This document shows positions 1,990-19,322 of a stretch of 21,239 nucleotides of DNA, piece by piece; the stretch's first letter is position 1, and each line of letters starts with the position of its first letter. A program made the position numbers and the translations under genes. Under the pieces are notes generated by a model. It was given only the letters and a program-made list of their open reading frames with translations, made no database searches and had not been told where the DNA came from. The DNA is from a virus: IMG/VR virus record IMGVR_UViG_3300031601_000047; one strand, 5' to 3'.

Positions 1990-2022
1990 AAAAAACCGTT
2001 TAAAATTTTAAACGGTTTTTTT
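1990..2022. terminator. bidirectional intrinsic terminator
   Basis: Perfect palindrome aaaaaaccgtttaaaa/ttttaaacggttttttt flanked by A and T runs. It lies between convergent genes. The last four codons and the stop of the 2008..2334(-) gene sit inside the hairpin. Confidence 0.65.
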
Positions 2023-2334
2023 AATGTTATCTAATTTCCTTTTTCTTAAATATTTTTCAATATCTTTAAATTCCATCACATTTAGATAATGTTCTGGGTC
2101 TTTATTGACCACATCTGATAATCTATAACTTAAAAATGCTTCATCAAGCGAAATATCTTTTGTGCTGCAATTTATCTGGTCAGTTAAATATTCAATTTCT
2201 TCTCTAATTATTTTACACGCATTATTATCTGTTTCTCTTGTGGTCATCATAGAATGTACCATATGATCATCAAACTTCTCTAAAGCTCGTCTTTTCATAT
2301 TAAGCAATTCTTCTATATGTTTAAAATCTTCCAT
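2008..2334 (-). CDS. hypothetical protein carrying the recurrent C-terminal tail (…YLRKRKLDNIKKTV)
   Basis: 108-aa ORF whose C-terminus matches the LRKxKLxKIN tail family. Confidence 0.5.
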   Translation of the reverse strand: MEDFKHIEELLNMKRRALEKFDDHMVHSMMTTRETDNNACKIIREEIEYLTDQINCSTKDISLDEAFLSYRLSDVVNKDPEHYLNVMEFKDIEKYLRKRKLDNIKKTV

Positions 2335-2369
2335 ATAATTATTATAAAAATAAATGTCTTATGTTTAAT

Positions 2370-2406
2370 TTTTTTTAAAAACTTAGTTAATATTTTAGGT
2401 TATAAT
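2370..2406 (+). promoter_or_regulatory. candidate sigma70-like promoter (TATAAT at 2400-2405) in a divergent intergenic region
   Basis: ggTTATAAT lies 5 nt upstream of the ATG at 2411. The start would be leaderless or near-leaderless. Confidence 0.25.
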
Positions 2407-2410
2407 CATT

Positions 2411-2578
2411 ATGAAAGATCTGTTAACACAAATCAACAAAGCATCTAATATAATAAATCAAAATGCAAGAAAAGGTTCTGGTGATTTTATAGTAGTACCA
2501 CCAAAAATTGTTAATATTTTAAATGATTATAAATTAAAACAAGAACGAAGAGAAAAATTAATTAATTTTGTATCATGA
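2411..2578 (+). CDS. small hypothetical protein (55 aa; absent from the ORF track because it is under 60 aa)
   Basis: ATG at 2411. Its stop overlaps the ATG of the next gene (tcATGAat). The C-terminus LKQERREKLINFVS is a weak variant of the tail motif. Confidence 0.4.
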   Translation: MKDLLTQINKASNIINQNARKGSGDFIVVPPKIVNILNDYKLKQERREKLINFVS

Positions 2579-3072
2579 ATAAACAAAAATATTTACATAG
2601 AAAAGGACATGATGATAAAAAGTGGAAAAATCATAGCAATTGTAATAAAAATAATTGTGGTGATGAAACACCTTTTAGAGAATCTATTCGAGATAAACAT
2701 AAAAAGGAATATTTTTGGAATTGGAAAATAGGCTTAGATTTTACGCCAACTGGTGAATATATTGAAGAAAATGTGAATCGAAATTGGGATGATGTATATT
2801 CTGAGATAATTAAAAAAACAAAACCAAAATTTCGTTGGCTATTAGAAAATTTTTTAGATTATTTTTTGGCTAAAGCGGTGATAGTCGATTATATACCATA
2901 TCGATCTTCTTGGAATAGAAGTACAATAGTGTTAAACTGGGTATTTGTAGATGAAGATGGTATTTTAAGAAACTATAATACTACAAAAGAAGTAGAAGAT
3001 ATGTCTAAAAGAAAAATAAGAAGAGACAAACTTTTAAAATTACAAAAAATATCTGATGAAAGCGACATATAA
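2575..3072 (+). CDS. hypothetical protein
   Basis: 165-aa ORF coupled to the upstream small ORF. The C-terminus RKIRRDKLLKLQKI is tail-like. Confidence 0.45.
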   Translation: MNKQKYLHRKGHDDKKWKNHSNCNKNNCGDETPFRESIRDKHKKEYFWNWKIGLDFTPTGEYIEENVNRNWDDVYSEIIKKTKPKFRWLLENFLDYFLAKAVIVDYIPYRSSWNRSTIVLNWVFVDEDGILRNYNTTKEVEDMSKRKIRRDKLLKLQKISDESDI

Positions 3073-3379
3073 AAAAGGTAATATTTTAAAAATAAAAGAA
3101 AATAGTGATATAATTTTTGAAAATATATGGAATAGTCAAAAATATCCTTATGCTAAGGTGTATGATGTTCGTAAAGTGTTTAGAAAAAACCAACATGTAG
3201 GATTTGAATATCATATAGGTTCAGAAAATAAAATTCAATTTGAATATTGGGATTCTTGTCGGTTTGTAGATTTTTATGAAAAAGTGGAAACTTTTCAACA
3301 TATAAACAATAAGATTCAAGATCATTTTTATACGAATAAGGAAATGAGAAAAATGAAATTAGAAAAATTAAATTTTTAG
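3056..3379 (+). CDS. hypothetical protein with C-terminal tail (…MRKMKLEKLNF)
   Basis: 107-aa ORF ending in the tail motif. Confidence 0.5.
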   Translation: MKATYKKGNILKIKENSDIIFENIWNSQKYPYAKVYDVRKVFRKNQHVGFEYHIGSENKIQFEYWDSCRFVDFYEKVETFQHINNKIQDHFYTNKEMRKMKLEKLNF

Positions 3380-3380
3380 A

Positions 3381-3673
3381 TTAAATATTTTTCAAGAATT
3401 TATATTTCTTTAACATTTTTTTATTATATATAAATTCTTTAATTTTTTTAATATTTAAATCTGTTTTTTTAATATTATCATTTTCTAAATATGAATTTAT
3501 AAGTTTATCAACATCACTTAACATAAGATCATCAAGATGTTGATCTCTTAAATGTTCAATAATATTATATGCAATGGTTTGTAATTTATGATATAATTTT
3601 TTTCAATCTTATCTTCATTTAAAATAGATTCTTTGAAGTTTTCCCAATTTTTAATTTTCATTTTCATTTCCAT
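3381..3673 (-). pseudogene. frame-interrupted small gene. It is either a -1 slip at an A7 tract or an assembly indel
   Basis: The ATG at 3673 opens a 41-codon frame that stops just after the A7 run (plus 3597-3603). The -1 frame then continues about 84 codons to the stop at 3381. The A AAA AAT heptamer sits at the junction. Confidence 0.3.
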
Positions 3674-17184: not shown

Positions 17185-17385
17185 AATATCAAATTTAAAA
17201 ATTTACAAATAATTTTGAACTATTCATAAAGCCCTATTTCTTTCTTTTAATAAAGTTTAATAAATGATGACATATATTAACTAAACTTTTAGTGAAATAT
17301 GTAATAAATTACGTTATGAATAATTTGAGAAATTTTGTATAATCAAAAATTAGGATTTATTAATTTTTTATTTGATAATGATTTT

Positions 17386-17682
17386 TTAATTTTTTTTGAA
17401 ATTTGTATTTTTTCTTCCGTGGTATATTCTTTCTTTTTTTTTATTTTTTGCTGAACAAGCACTACAATAATATGATAAATCTTTTTTTAGTTGTCTAAAT
17501 TCTATTACTTTTTTCACGTCACAGCAATCACAAGATACGAATATTTTATAGTGACTACCTTTTACTAAATGTTCTGTTTTTATTTTTAAAAGTTTCCTAT
17601 ACTTAGCATCATAACCTAAATTTTTATAATATTTTATTTGTTGGTTATTTACAATTATTTCTATTTCTGTTTCTAAAATCAT
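17386..17682 (-). CDS. small Cys-rich (zinc-ribbon-like) protein
   Basis: CDCCD…CSAC. Confidence 0.4.
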   Translation of the reverse strand: MILETEIEIIVNNQQIKYYKNLGYDAKYRKLLKIKTEHLVKGSHYKIFVSCDCCDVKKVIEFRQLKKDLSYYCSACSAKNKKKERIYHGRKNTNFKKN

Positions 17683-17711
17683 TCTATATATATTAATATT
17701 TTAAAATATTT

Positions 17712-17966
17712 CTACGTATTAGATTTTGAAAAATTCACAAATTTAGTAATTAAACTATTTTTAGGTAGATTTTTTAATTGCTTATCTGTTTTTGTGTTAG
17801 TATTAGGTTCATTATCTGATAAATCTATTGGATGATCTAATGTATTCACGGTATATTTATCATCTAAATCACCTTTTAGTTTTTTAGATATATCTCCACC
17901 TTGTTTTTGAATCATACTTTTTATATGTTTAAGTTGATCGTCTGAGTGTTTTCTTAACATTGGCAT
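17712..17966 (-). CDS. hypothetical protein
   Basis: 84 aa. Confidence 0.35.
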   Translation of the reverse strand: MPMLRKHSDDQLKHIKSMIQKQGGDISKKLKGDLDDKYTVNTLDHPIDLSDNEPNTNTKTDKQLKNLPKNSLITKFVNFSKSNT

Positions 17967-18032
17967 ACAATAACTATTTCATTTTCATTATATATTAAAA
18001 ACAAATTATTATTTTTTATCTATATATATTGT

Positions 18033-18257
18033 ATGCGAATTTGGACATACAAAGAACTTCGAGAACAAATAACTGATGAATTATTAGATTTATTGACTGA
18101 TTACTTAGAGTTAAAAAAAGATCTGGTAAATTTAATTGAAAAAGATAACGAAAGTGTAGTTTTTTATAATAAAGAACATCTTGTGAATTATGATATGAAT
18201 ATTAGAAAAATAAAAAATGAATTAGTAGTTAGATCAAAAAATAAATATTTAGAATGA
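18033..18257 (+). CDS. hypothetical protein
   Basis: 74 aa with an ATGA overlap to the next gene. Confidence 0.4.
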   Translation: MRIWTYKELREQITDELLDLLTDYLELKKDLVNLIEKDNESVVFYNKEHLVNYDMNIRKIKNELVVRSKNKYLE

Positions 18258-18454
18258 CATATCAATTTGAAGTAACCATCAAAACAGAAAGCACACCAAA
18301 AATGTTTTTAATAAAAAGAACATTTGAAAATAAATATCAGGCTCAAACCGAATTAACAAATATAGGCAAAAATGGTTTAATTATTAATGAAAACGGACAG
18401 AAATATTTTCCTCCACATAGAATTTTAGAAATTGATTTTAAGGAAATAAATTAA
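18254..18454 (+). CDS. hypothetical protein
   Basis: 66 aa. Its stop overlaps the stop of the convergent gene 18451..19059. Confidence 0.4.
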   Translation: MTYQFEVTIKTESTPKMFLIKRTFENKYQAQTELTNIGKNGLIINENGQKYFPPHRILEIDFKEIN

Positions 18455-19059
18455 ACATTCTTATTTATCTTATCGATTTTAAGTTTTCTGACGAATTTTT
18501 TAATATCATTATTAAAATTGAATTTGATTGTATTGTGTATAATCTTTTCAGATTCAAAATATACATTAAACATTTTTTTATTTCCATAATTGGTTTCTAA
18601 TATATTATTAAGTTTAATTGCAATTGGTGGATTATCATACATTAAAATATAATGTTTATCATTAACATAATACTCTATCTTAATATTATTATATTTCTTA
18701 TATAGAGAAAAGTAAGATTTTAACATATTTATTTCATCATCATCACCAAAAATGATAATTGCTTTTATATTACAATTATCTGTATAATTTTTGAAATATG
18801 AATTTAATATACTAAATGTTTCTTTTTTATGTTCAGTTGAAATGTTAAAGTTATGCTCGGTTAGAATATCGGATTTATCAACTGCATATTTTATCAAATC
18901 TTTAATAACATCATGGTAATCGCCGCAATCAGTTGTCCTTTGTTTTAATATATTTGGGAAACTTTCCGATACTTTATTAGTAATAAGGAAAGAAATATCA
19001 ACCAATAACTTTTCTATTCTAATTATATCATTAGAATTAAATGTTTGCATATGTTCCAT
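18451..19059 (-). CDS. hypothetical protein with C-terminal tail (…FVRKLKIDKINKNV)
   Basis: 202 aa with a TAATG overlap to the upstream gene. Confidence 0.5.
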   Translation of the reverse strand: MEHMQTFNSNDIIRIEKLLVDISFLITNKVSESFPNILKQRTTDCGDYHDVIKDLIKYAVDKSDILTEHNFNISTEHKKETFSILNSYFKNYTDNCNIKAIIIFGDDDEINMLKSYFSLYKKYNNIKIEYYVNDKHYILMYDNPPIAIKLNNILETNYGNKKMFNVYFESEKIIHNTIKFNFNNDIKKFVRKLKIDKINKNV

Positions 19060-19322
19060 TATTTTTTAAAAATTTTTTTAAGTTTTTCTTTTCTCAGTTC
19101 TTTAATAGTTGGTTTCATTTTTTGAATATCATAAGTATAATAACAGTCCGTTTCATTGTTCCATCTTTCAGCAAGATATTTTGCTTCAGTCCAAGTTAGA
19201 TCTTTCTTTTTTACTTGCCGTAGTCCCACAAATATATTTTCAATTATTTGATACTTAATAATCATCTTTTTTACCCCAATCAAAAACATGTTTAAGAGTT
19301 TCCCACATACACATCCCAGCAA
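19059..19322 (-). CDS. hypothetical protein with C-terminal tail (…IKELRKEKLKKIFKK)
   Basis: 87 aa. Confidence 0.45.
   Translation of the reverse strand: MLGCVCGKLLNMFLIGVKKMIIKYQIIENIFVGLRQVKKKDLTWTEAKYLAERWNNETDCYYTYDIQKMKPTIKELRKEKLKKIFKK

Follow-up and report, generated by a model that had tools for sequence, protein, structure and literature searches.

Shared terminal peptides that target unrelated proteins are a known device, and it is against this background that we describe a recurrent C-terminal tail, of core R-K-x-K-L-x-K-[IL]-N (the RKxKL tail in what follows), borne by many small proteins of a stretch of viral DNA of 21,239 nucleotides (IMG/VR record IMGVR_UViG_3300031601_000047). 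This stretch, here called the window, was analysed at its full length, and by profile match it also encodes a major vault protein (MVP) homologue. The closest phage precedent is, by analogy, found in bacteriophage T4, whose internal proteins (IPI-III, Alt) share an N-terminal capsid-targeting sequence of about ten residues, removed by the prohead protease. In both cases a short peptide is the sole part common to small, diverse and fast-evolving proteins of a large phage, encoded in hyperplastic loci; the T4 sequence, however, is N-terminal, cleaved and restricted to a handful of proteins, whereas the tail is C-terminal, unrelated in sequence and present on some 20% of the open reading frames (ORFs). 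When a site of the T4 prohead-protease type, (L/I)-x-E, was sought, a phi-K-E triplet was seen directly before the tail in only about 30% of cases.

Encapsulins and bacterial microcompartments offer another likeness, that of a short terminal peptide or helix which sits on unrelated cargo and is read by a shell. Encapsulin peptides, however, are hydrophobic (LTVGSL, for example), follow a flexible linker rich in Gly, Pro or Ala and belong to an operon with the shell gene, whereas the tail is strongly basic, continuous with the fold of its carrier and encoded by dispersed genes. No encapsulin or microcompartment shell gene was seen in the window, ten proteins of which were scanned against Pfam, or in the precomputed annotations of a near-identical contig of 33.6 kb (ENA, ERZ27316756 k141_910919). 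The cargo of the eukaryotic vault comes to mind because this genome has a gene for an MVP homologue; in the vault, however, the address is the INT domain of PARP4, about 160 residues long, as against a helix of 9-12 residues here, and most phage MVP loci are free of the tail. The signals of AAA+ proteases (C-motif 2 of MuA for ClpX, the XB tether of SspB, the tail of lambda CII for FtsH) are likewise short, basic-hydrophobic, C-terminal and found on unrelated proteins, phage proteins included, but they have another sequence and are mostly read at or near the free C-terminus; to our knowledge none of them serves as a clade-wide tag on a fifth of the ORFs of a phage. Finally, the RxLR motif of oomycetes and the PEXEL motif of Plasmodium are short, conserved and carried by hundreds of unrelated, diversifying small proteins, often in paralogue arrays, but they are N-terminal, eukaryotic and linked to secretion, and the likeness is architectural only. 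From such devices the tail differs in sequence, position, number of clients and viral lineage. We found no description, in the searchable literature, Pfam or PHROGs, of either this tail or the second C-terminal tag that accompanies it (see below); neither the jumbo-phage reviews nor the huge-phage paper (PMC7162821) mentions vault proteins or C-terminal tags, and a preprint in which phage MVPs were described earlier (bioRxiv 10.1101/2023.11.10.566534) appears not to be concerned with tags.

A tail shared by small proteins of the window

A first-pass annotation of the window, made from its letters alone, had listed nine dissimilar ORFs as converging on one C-terminal peptide. All nine endings are present in the sequence as quoted, and the observation is real and stronger than first described. 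In a six-frame translation, a strict regular expression, RK.K[LI][DE][KEN][IL]N, finds 7 matches, and a wider (medium) one, [RK]K.K[LI][DEK][KEN][IL][NFK], finds 9; every one of them lies 1-5 residues upstream of a stop codon, in an ORF of at least 41 codons, and the six frames hold no internal, off-frame or non-coding copy of either form. Residue shuffles of the 47 likely window proteins yielded on average 0.001 strict and 0.015 medium matches, and shuffles confined to the last 25 residues of each protein 0.0002 and 0.011. These ratios overstate significance, because the expressions were composed post hoc on data already seen, a problem from which independent controls, such as the relatives sampled through MVP (below), are free. 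The comparison with shuffled and AT-matched controls that had been proposed at the outset thus comes down on the side of enrichment, both in the window (7-9 seen as against 0.001-0.015) and in its clade (64/374 ORFs as against 1/239).

A loose form of the motif brings the count to 12 of the 47 likely genes. Among them is 5506..5640, overlooked at first, while the two cases that had been listed as weaker, 2411..2578 and 2575..3072, have the loose form and neither the strict nor the medium motif. On this contig, the 8.9 kb lying upstream of the window add six to eight further tails. The tails of the window are as follows.

2020..2046, minus strand: tail RKRKLDNIK, 3 residues before the stop codon of ORF 2008..2334 (108 amino acids), at a convergent gene end after which comes a hairpin terminator
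3347..3373, plus strand: tail RKMKLEKLN, 1 residue before the stop codon of ORF 3056..3379 (107 amino acids), at a convergent gene end
5369..5395, minus strand: tail RKEKLDKIN of ORF 5351..5521 (56 amino acids, TTG start), whose coding status is less certain
5639..5665, minus strand: tail RKEKIDKIN of ORF 5624..5809 (61 amino acids)
5855..5881, minus strand: tail RKMKLDKIN of ORF 5840..5995 (51 amino acids)
6402..6428, minus strand: tail RKEKLDEIN of ORF 6393..6737 (114 amino acids), with a beta-rich core and a terminal helix in the predicted model
12556..12582, minus strand: tail RKQKLEKLN of ORF 12541..13035 (164 amino acids), with two hydrophobic stretches resembling transmembrane helices
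18463..18489, minus strand: tail RKLKIDKIN of ORF 18451..19059 (202 amino acids)
19068..19094, minus strand: tail RKEKLKKIF of ORF 19059..19322
2546..2569, plus strand: loose tail RREKLINF of ORF 2411..2578 (55 amino acids), with weak similarity to a T4 Gp23 fragment
3019..3042, plus strand: loose tail RRDKLLKL, 9 residues before the stop codon of ORF 2575..3072 (165 amino acids)
5521..5544, minus strand: loose tail RKRKLAKI of ORF 5506..5640 (44 amino acids, ending in RKRKLAKIWRVK)

The ORF 5351..5521 is missing from the public annotation of the near-identical contig, and the true start of 19059..19322 probably lies further downstream, the same annotation giving a product of 68 amino acids. 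Between 5351 and 5809 on the minus strand, three successive tiny ORFs (56, 44 and 61 amino acids) overlap by 16-17 nucleotides, and all of them have tails of the RKxKL type.

Conservation of the peptide

The first-pass annotation had also held that it is the peptide, and not a copied DNA repeat, that is conserved, and this view stands: codon usage in the tail is near background and no DNA copy is found outside a coding frame. A nucleotide weight matrix built from the nine window copies retrieves nothing else above background on either strand of the window, and nucleotide conservation stops at the edges of the motif, the flanks of the nine copies not being conserved. The synonymous variation that had been noticed is genuine (Arg as AGA, CGA or CGT; Leu as TTA or CTT; Ile as ATA, ATC or ATT), and in one orthologue pair AGA faces CGA at the invariant arginine, position R0 of the motif. 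In 269 tails of the clade, the codons used at R0, L4 and I/L7 depart little from the genomic background, with AGA at 0.88 vs 0.72 and CGT at 0.04 vs 0.10 for the invariant arginine, and TTA at 0.65 vs 0.60 and CTT at 0.20 vs 0.15 for the leucine and isoleucine positions. Nor is the motif the promoter or the ribosome-binding region of the next gene, an idea dropped because convergent transcription units finish in two of the nine window tails; promoter motifs (sigma-70 type, TAnnTTTG) showed no enrichment over shuffles. Recoded stop codons were discarded as well, the tail genes that end in TAG abutting convergent genes and ORF structure being normal under code 11.

An appended module on unrelated bodies

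Carriers are short proteins (over 63 tail genes of the clade the median length is 88 and the greatest 214 amino acids), and they are overwhelmingly ORFans. Those of the window have no Pfam or PHROG match; among 44 larger carriers the only matches are to DUF7448 (two proteins), DUF6794 and one gp32-like domain binding single-stranded DNA, and with 66 tails no Pfam or PHROG family matched more than one, even when E-values up to 10 were admitted for Pfam and up to 1 for PHROGs. When 105 carrier bodies were compared by BLAST they fell into 70 clusters, in which the nine of the window are all singletons; as had been claimed, these nine are without BLAST similarity to one another outside the tail. 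Profile alignment with hhalign among three carrier families tells the same story, since only the tail aligns (over 19 and 12 columns).

Within families, by contrast, the tail is held. In seven orthologues of the 6393..6737 protein, 58-73% identical, LRKEKL is invariant, whereas the residues past it vary in sequence and in length, from 2 to 7; in general the RKxKL motif has 0-11 variable residues after it, most often 2. An orthologue of the 202-amino-acid protein (18451..19059), only 50% identical, retains FVRKxKxD, and a syntenic contig in an NCBI assembly retains four tails. Most instructive is a family of proteins resembling SH3 domains, MFKVGDKVVCI...RFxxLKEYRKxKLxK[IL], in which nearly all of 97 clusters have the tail or a close variant of it (74 match a strict expression), and about seven, among the most distant matches, end differently straight after the barrel. 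On this comparative evidence the tail is an appended module under purifying selection, since orthologues keep it and the most distant SH3-like homologues are without it.

Tails are found, too, on families that are not barrels, on zinc-ribbon-like proteins, on proteins of 200 amino acids and on a probable membrane protein, the carrier 12541..13035, which appears, reading its translation by eye, to have two transmembrane helices. Many carriers stand in tandem paralogue arrays. A variant of the tail end is specific to the SH3-like carriers (L175 13676-17122, L133 13075-14395; proteins P0015-P0111), where the residue after the motif is often a cysteine, in endings of the form K[IL]C[SL]K or KCSK. 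As for the ORF 2411-2578 on the plus strand, its 55-residue product has a weak precomputed Pfam match to the T4 major capsid protein Gp23; it resembles a fragment of that protein (GSGDFIVVPPKIVNILND as against GEGNFIIASRNVVNVLAS in T4). This ORF and the carrier with the gp32-like domain may each consist of a piece of a core phage protein to which the tag has been fused.

The logo of the tail is R-K-x-K-L-x-K-[IL]-N, preceded by aromatic or aliphatic residues, and the tail, whose core is R-K-x-K-[LI]-x-x-[IL]-(N), is predicted to fold as a helix of two to three turns. In the AlphaFold model of the SH3-like family (predicted local distance difference test, pLDDT, 91.5) a barrel of the SH3/KOW/Tudor type is followed by a helix, residues 58-71, which spans the tail; fold searches with the barrel returned only uncharacterised phage proteins and generic SH3/KOW/Tudor folds. 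The 114-residue window carrier, modelled with lower confidence, similarly has a terminal helix, 105-113, after a beta core. On a helical wheel R0, K3, L4 and I/L7 share one face, where information content is concentrated, a measure that is partly circular because these anchor positions served to select the tails.

One clade of huge phages

A degenerate DNA pattern, back-translated from the motif, matched at least 120 stretches of IMG/VR. Among the matches listed, many come from AT-rich contigs, 100-640 kb long, that have several matches each, and 138 of 167 peptide matches are 0-8 residues from a stop codon; on contigs of 200-260 kb the tail-bearing genes are scattered along the entire length and not clustered near MVP. 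In bacterial and archaeal genome DNA the same pattern also matched at least 120 stretches, one match each; among the matches listed there, 36 give an in-frame peptide, 18 of them internal, and nearly all of those close to a stop codon belong to junk frames.

An independent sample was provided by the MVP gene, situated in the window as follows.

13385..15799, minus strand: MVP-like gene, 804 amino acids, with Pfam matches to MVP_shoulder (3e-27) and Vault_3

By these profile matches the product is a genuine MVP homologue; its closest deposited phage counterparts, about 52% identical, belong to the uncultured huge phages LR756500, LR756501 and LR756503. A three-sequence alignment was used for the search of IMG/VR, a single-sequence query having retrieved nothing, and it gave 80 loci (L128-L207) picked via MVP and hence independently of the tail. 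Loci whose MVP is at least 61% identical to that of the window have up to 20 tail-bearing ORFs per 50-65 or so, with the exception of L130 and L131 (MVP 64% identical), which have one RKxKL tail each; all 70 loci with an MVP at most 59% identical have zero or one, including loci at 24-26% GC. Pooling ORFs of at least 50 amino acids, 64 of 374 bear the tail in the clade, as against 1 of 239 in AT-matched relatives, and in a non-overlapping gene set 63 of 283 clade genes (22%) do so. The tail is thus specific to one clade of AT-rich, MVP-encoding huge phages. The window DNA found no match among GenBank phages at the nucleotide level, nor did a 38-residue double-tail peptide with tblastn against phages; a 30-position hidden Markov model of the tail, a profile too short for power at the scale of the 1.8 billion representatives that were searched, found beyond the window proteins a single protein, of 2118 amino acids, at E<=0.001. 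MVP homologues themselves are common in huge-phage contigs, at 22-63% GC over the 80 IMG/VR loci, and the genes that flank them vary even between close relatives.

A second C-terminal tag

A second ending, [SAT][NK]K[FY]N[LIVM], is found on 38 of 374 ORFs of the same clade (about 10%) and on none of 239 in the AT-matched relatives. It stands at the very C-terminus in 62 of 69 cases, although one or two residues sometimes come after it. An acidic or hydrophobic helix comes before it, and it is never combined with the RKxKL tail in one protein. Loci L130 and L131, almost devoid of the latter, have the former; K[FY]N[LIVM]-tagged ORFs are found at L133 87-4141, and many in L128, L130 and L175. 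About one gene in three in the sampled regions of the clade has one tag or the other. In the window the second tag occurs twice.

1463..1474, plus strand: second tag KYNL, at the very end of ORF 1136..1477; the orthologue in the related contig L208 ends in KYNI
8865..8876, minus strand: second tag KYNL, at the very end of ORF 8862..9110

The tail as a proposed address

A predicted helix with one conserved face, restriction to the C-terminus, grafting on unrelated bodies, purifying selection and clade specificity are together what a tag for docking or addressing, recognised by a single shared partner, would show, and to this reading we give a probability of roughly 0.57. The first-pass annotation had proposed a sorting or targeting signal; in so far as this meant a module on unrelated proteins, with the anatomy expected of one, the proposal holds, while its specific link to vault cargo finds no support. 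The clade would have grafted the tail onto dozens of unrelated small accessory proteins, the conserved face (R0, K3, L4, I/L7) would dock on one common partner, and through docking these fast-evolving proteins, which make up roughly a fifth of the ORFs of the regions sampled, would meet at a single place or machine. A constant address joined to a variable payload, often in tandem paralogue arrays, would then be the layout of an effector repertoire. That there is a single receptor, and what it may be, we infer from this picture. The interior of the prohead or virion, or another phage-built assembly besides MVP, is a possible but doubtful partner; a proteostasis hub, AAA+ protease or unfoldase, is an unlikely one, the MVP shell a decidedly unlikely one, and some other partner slightly less likely still.

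Several points weigh against an address of this kind. Part of the tail count reflects common descent, because many carriers are tandem paralogues, and the counts themselves were drawn from genome fragments, in sampled regions only. A fifth of the ORFs, including a probable membrane protein, makes many clients for a packaging signal. No conserved neighbour of MVP emerged as a receptor candidate, only MVP itself being common to the sampled loci. A motif so highly charged could bind nucleic acid without any protein receptor, and, since the segment upstream of the helix (RF..LKEY-RK.KL) is part of the fold and not a flexible linker, the helix could itself belong to the architecture of small domains.

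As a special case of docking, the tail might act as a degron or might tether its carrier to a chaperone, an unfoldase or an AAA+ protease, and as such would time the removal of early proteins or deliver bound targets for degradation. We consider this unlikely. Restriction to the C-terminus, a basic-hydrophobic make-up and small carriers resembling early genes all suit it, as do the basic ClpX signals (RRKKAI in MuA), the XB tethers of SspB and the tail of lambda CII in its proteolysis by FtsH; recognition of the FtsH type would be in keeping with a tail that a probable membrane protein exposes to the cytosol, and the phi-x-phi-COOH end of the second tag resembles the ligands of PDZ-type, tail-specific proteases. 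Degrons read at the free carboxylate, however, are not trailed by the 0-11 variable residues that follow RKxKL, and the free position typical of ClpX C-motif 2 is occupied by K[FY]N[LIVM] (62/69) and not by the RKxKL tail. No protease gene was seen in the sampled DNA, and a strongly conserved address on diverging bodies would be more typical of an essential sorting signal.

The other special case, the one favoured at first, has the tail bind the phage MVP and so load small proteins into a vault-like shell. The MVP homologue is real, all ten loci with an MVP at least 61% identical carry one or both types of tag, several tail-bearing contigs also encode MVP, and short C-terminal cargo peptides are usual for other protein shells, encapsulins for instance. 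Every sampled tail-bearing member of the clade has MVP; the sampling itself went through MVP, and any gene conserved in the lineage would pass equally well. Against the proposal, the 70 more distant MVP loci, AT-rich ones included, are tail-free or nearly so, and L130 and L131, with an MVP 64% identical, almost lack RKxKL tails. The MVP of the tail clade is set apart from that of its relatives by 44 substitutions, most of them conservative, which shift the net charge by +2, and this comparison revealed neither an acidic patch peculiar to the clade, as a counterpart to a basic tail, nor any otherwise radical change. Known vault cargo relies on a domain and not on a peptide, and the element shared here, of 9-20 residues with no recurrent Pfam match (66 tails, 44 larger carriers), is far from it. 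The wider spread of MVP, its conservative changes, the dispersal of tails through 200-260 kb contigs and a carrier that looks membrane-bound thus remove the argument from adjacency; the tie to the MVP shell is left with no specific support, and as an explanation we hold it decidedly improbable.

About as little credence goes to the idea that there is no common receptor, the tail being an intrinsic basic helix which binds DNA or RNA, or caps small beta-barrels, and which recurs through family expansion and lysine-rich, AT-coded C-termini. The abundance of tandem paralogues among the carriers speaks for it, as does the best-modelled carrier, in which a barrel of the SH3/KOW/Tudor type and a helix recall the architecture of ribosomal protein L24 and of KOW domains, and one carrier has the gp32-like domain. 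The tail is nevertheless found on proteins that are not barrels, zinc-ribbon-like, 200-residue and probable membrane proteins among them, profile comparison finds no homology beyond it, and barrel homologues fold without it. AT-matched and similarly lysine-rich relatives are essentially tail-free (1/239), and L4, I/L7 and N8 are conserved specifically, beyond mere charge.

A signal at the level of translation, by which the nascent tail would slow termination and promote re-initiation on a coupled downstream gene in a host that does without Shine-Dalgarno sequences, seems very improbable. The motif always lies inside the last 20 residues or so, no Shine-Dalgarno-like sequence was seen upstream of the window genes, and the next gene starts within 15 nucleotides for 47 of 63 tail genes as against 100 of 186 others (p=0.005); this excess, however, is one that tandem arrays alone would yield. 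Six of the 63 tail genes (two of nine in the window) stand at convergent boundaries with nothing downstream, the spacing to the stop codon varies, and a single arrest peptide shared by a fifth of a proteome would be without precedent. As to a DNA-level repeat (promoter, terminator, recombination site) or a chance product of 24% GC, the A-rich tail DNA, copies alike through narrow codon choice and AGA, AAA and ATA slightly above background lend it some colour, but it is scarcely credible when the copies are absent from other frames, from the opposite strand of genes and from non-coding DNA, when conservation is confined within the motif at near-background codon usage, when AT-matched relatives show 1/239 and when bacterial in-frame matches are mostly internal or in junk frames (36, among the matches listed).

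Other features of the window

At 24% GC, the window is dense in small genes, mostly on the minus strand, with overlapping start and stop codons, and it has 10 intrinsic terminators where 2.8 would be expected. Two genes downstream of MVP, the minus-strand segment 11680-12540 is 860 nucleotides free of ORFs, with a locally higher GC and a strong hairpin-T terminator near 11745-11790, and resembles a structured RNA gene; in Rfam it gave only a manA RNA below threshold (24.6 bits vs 55.2 needed), and no similar sequence was found in the other sampled loci. On the other side of MVP, at 15924-16787 (minus strand), an RNA ligase is spread over two ORFs, one matching part of Pfam PHA02142 and the other part of RNA_ligase, with a gap of about 110 nucleotides, while L208 has a single RNA ligase ORF of 212 amino acids; the split gene could be a pseudogene, a frameshift or the site of an intervening sequence. 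Four tandem paralogues of 128-147 amino acids at 10018-11676 (minus strand) share the motif FD(F/N)ISDTTTF and have N-terminal hydrophobic stretches resembling transmembrane helices; they have neither tag. About 1 kb upstream of window position 1, the same contig encodes a PTH2-type peptidyl-tRNA hydrolase (L125 7825-8211, Pfam PF01981).

What the tail may mean for huge phages

Most genes of huge phages are small ORFans without a handle, and a tag on a fifth to a third of them would group hundreds into one functional class. The tail peptide would be a simple bait for finding the machine or compartment that these proteins serve, and the function of phage MVP homologues would become testable, even if the tail proves unrelated to it. 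Were the partner of an address tag a capsid, a vault-like shell or a protease, this would show how phages organise or deliver a large, effector-like repertoire, and the tail would provide a portable tag for loading proteins into that assembly. A wider view, which we offer tentatively, is that of an addressing system run by the phage with at least two C-terminal codes, one close to the end (RKxKLxK[IL]N) and one at the free end itself (K[FY]N[LIVM]). By this system about a third of the small accessory proteins would be directed to one or two destinations built by the phage, for example the interior of the capsid, for co-injection, or a vault-like MVP shell. If so, these viruses would have a counterpart, encoded in their own genomes, of the targeting signals of cells.

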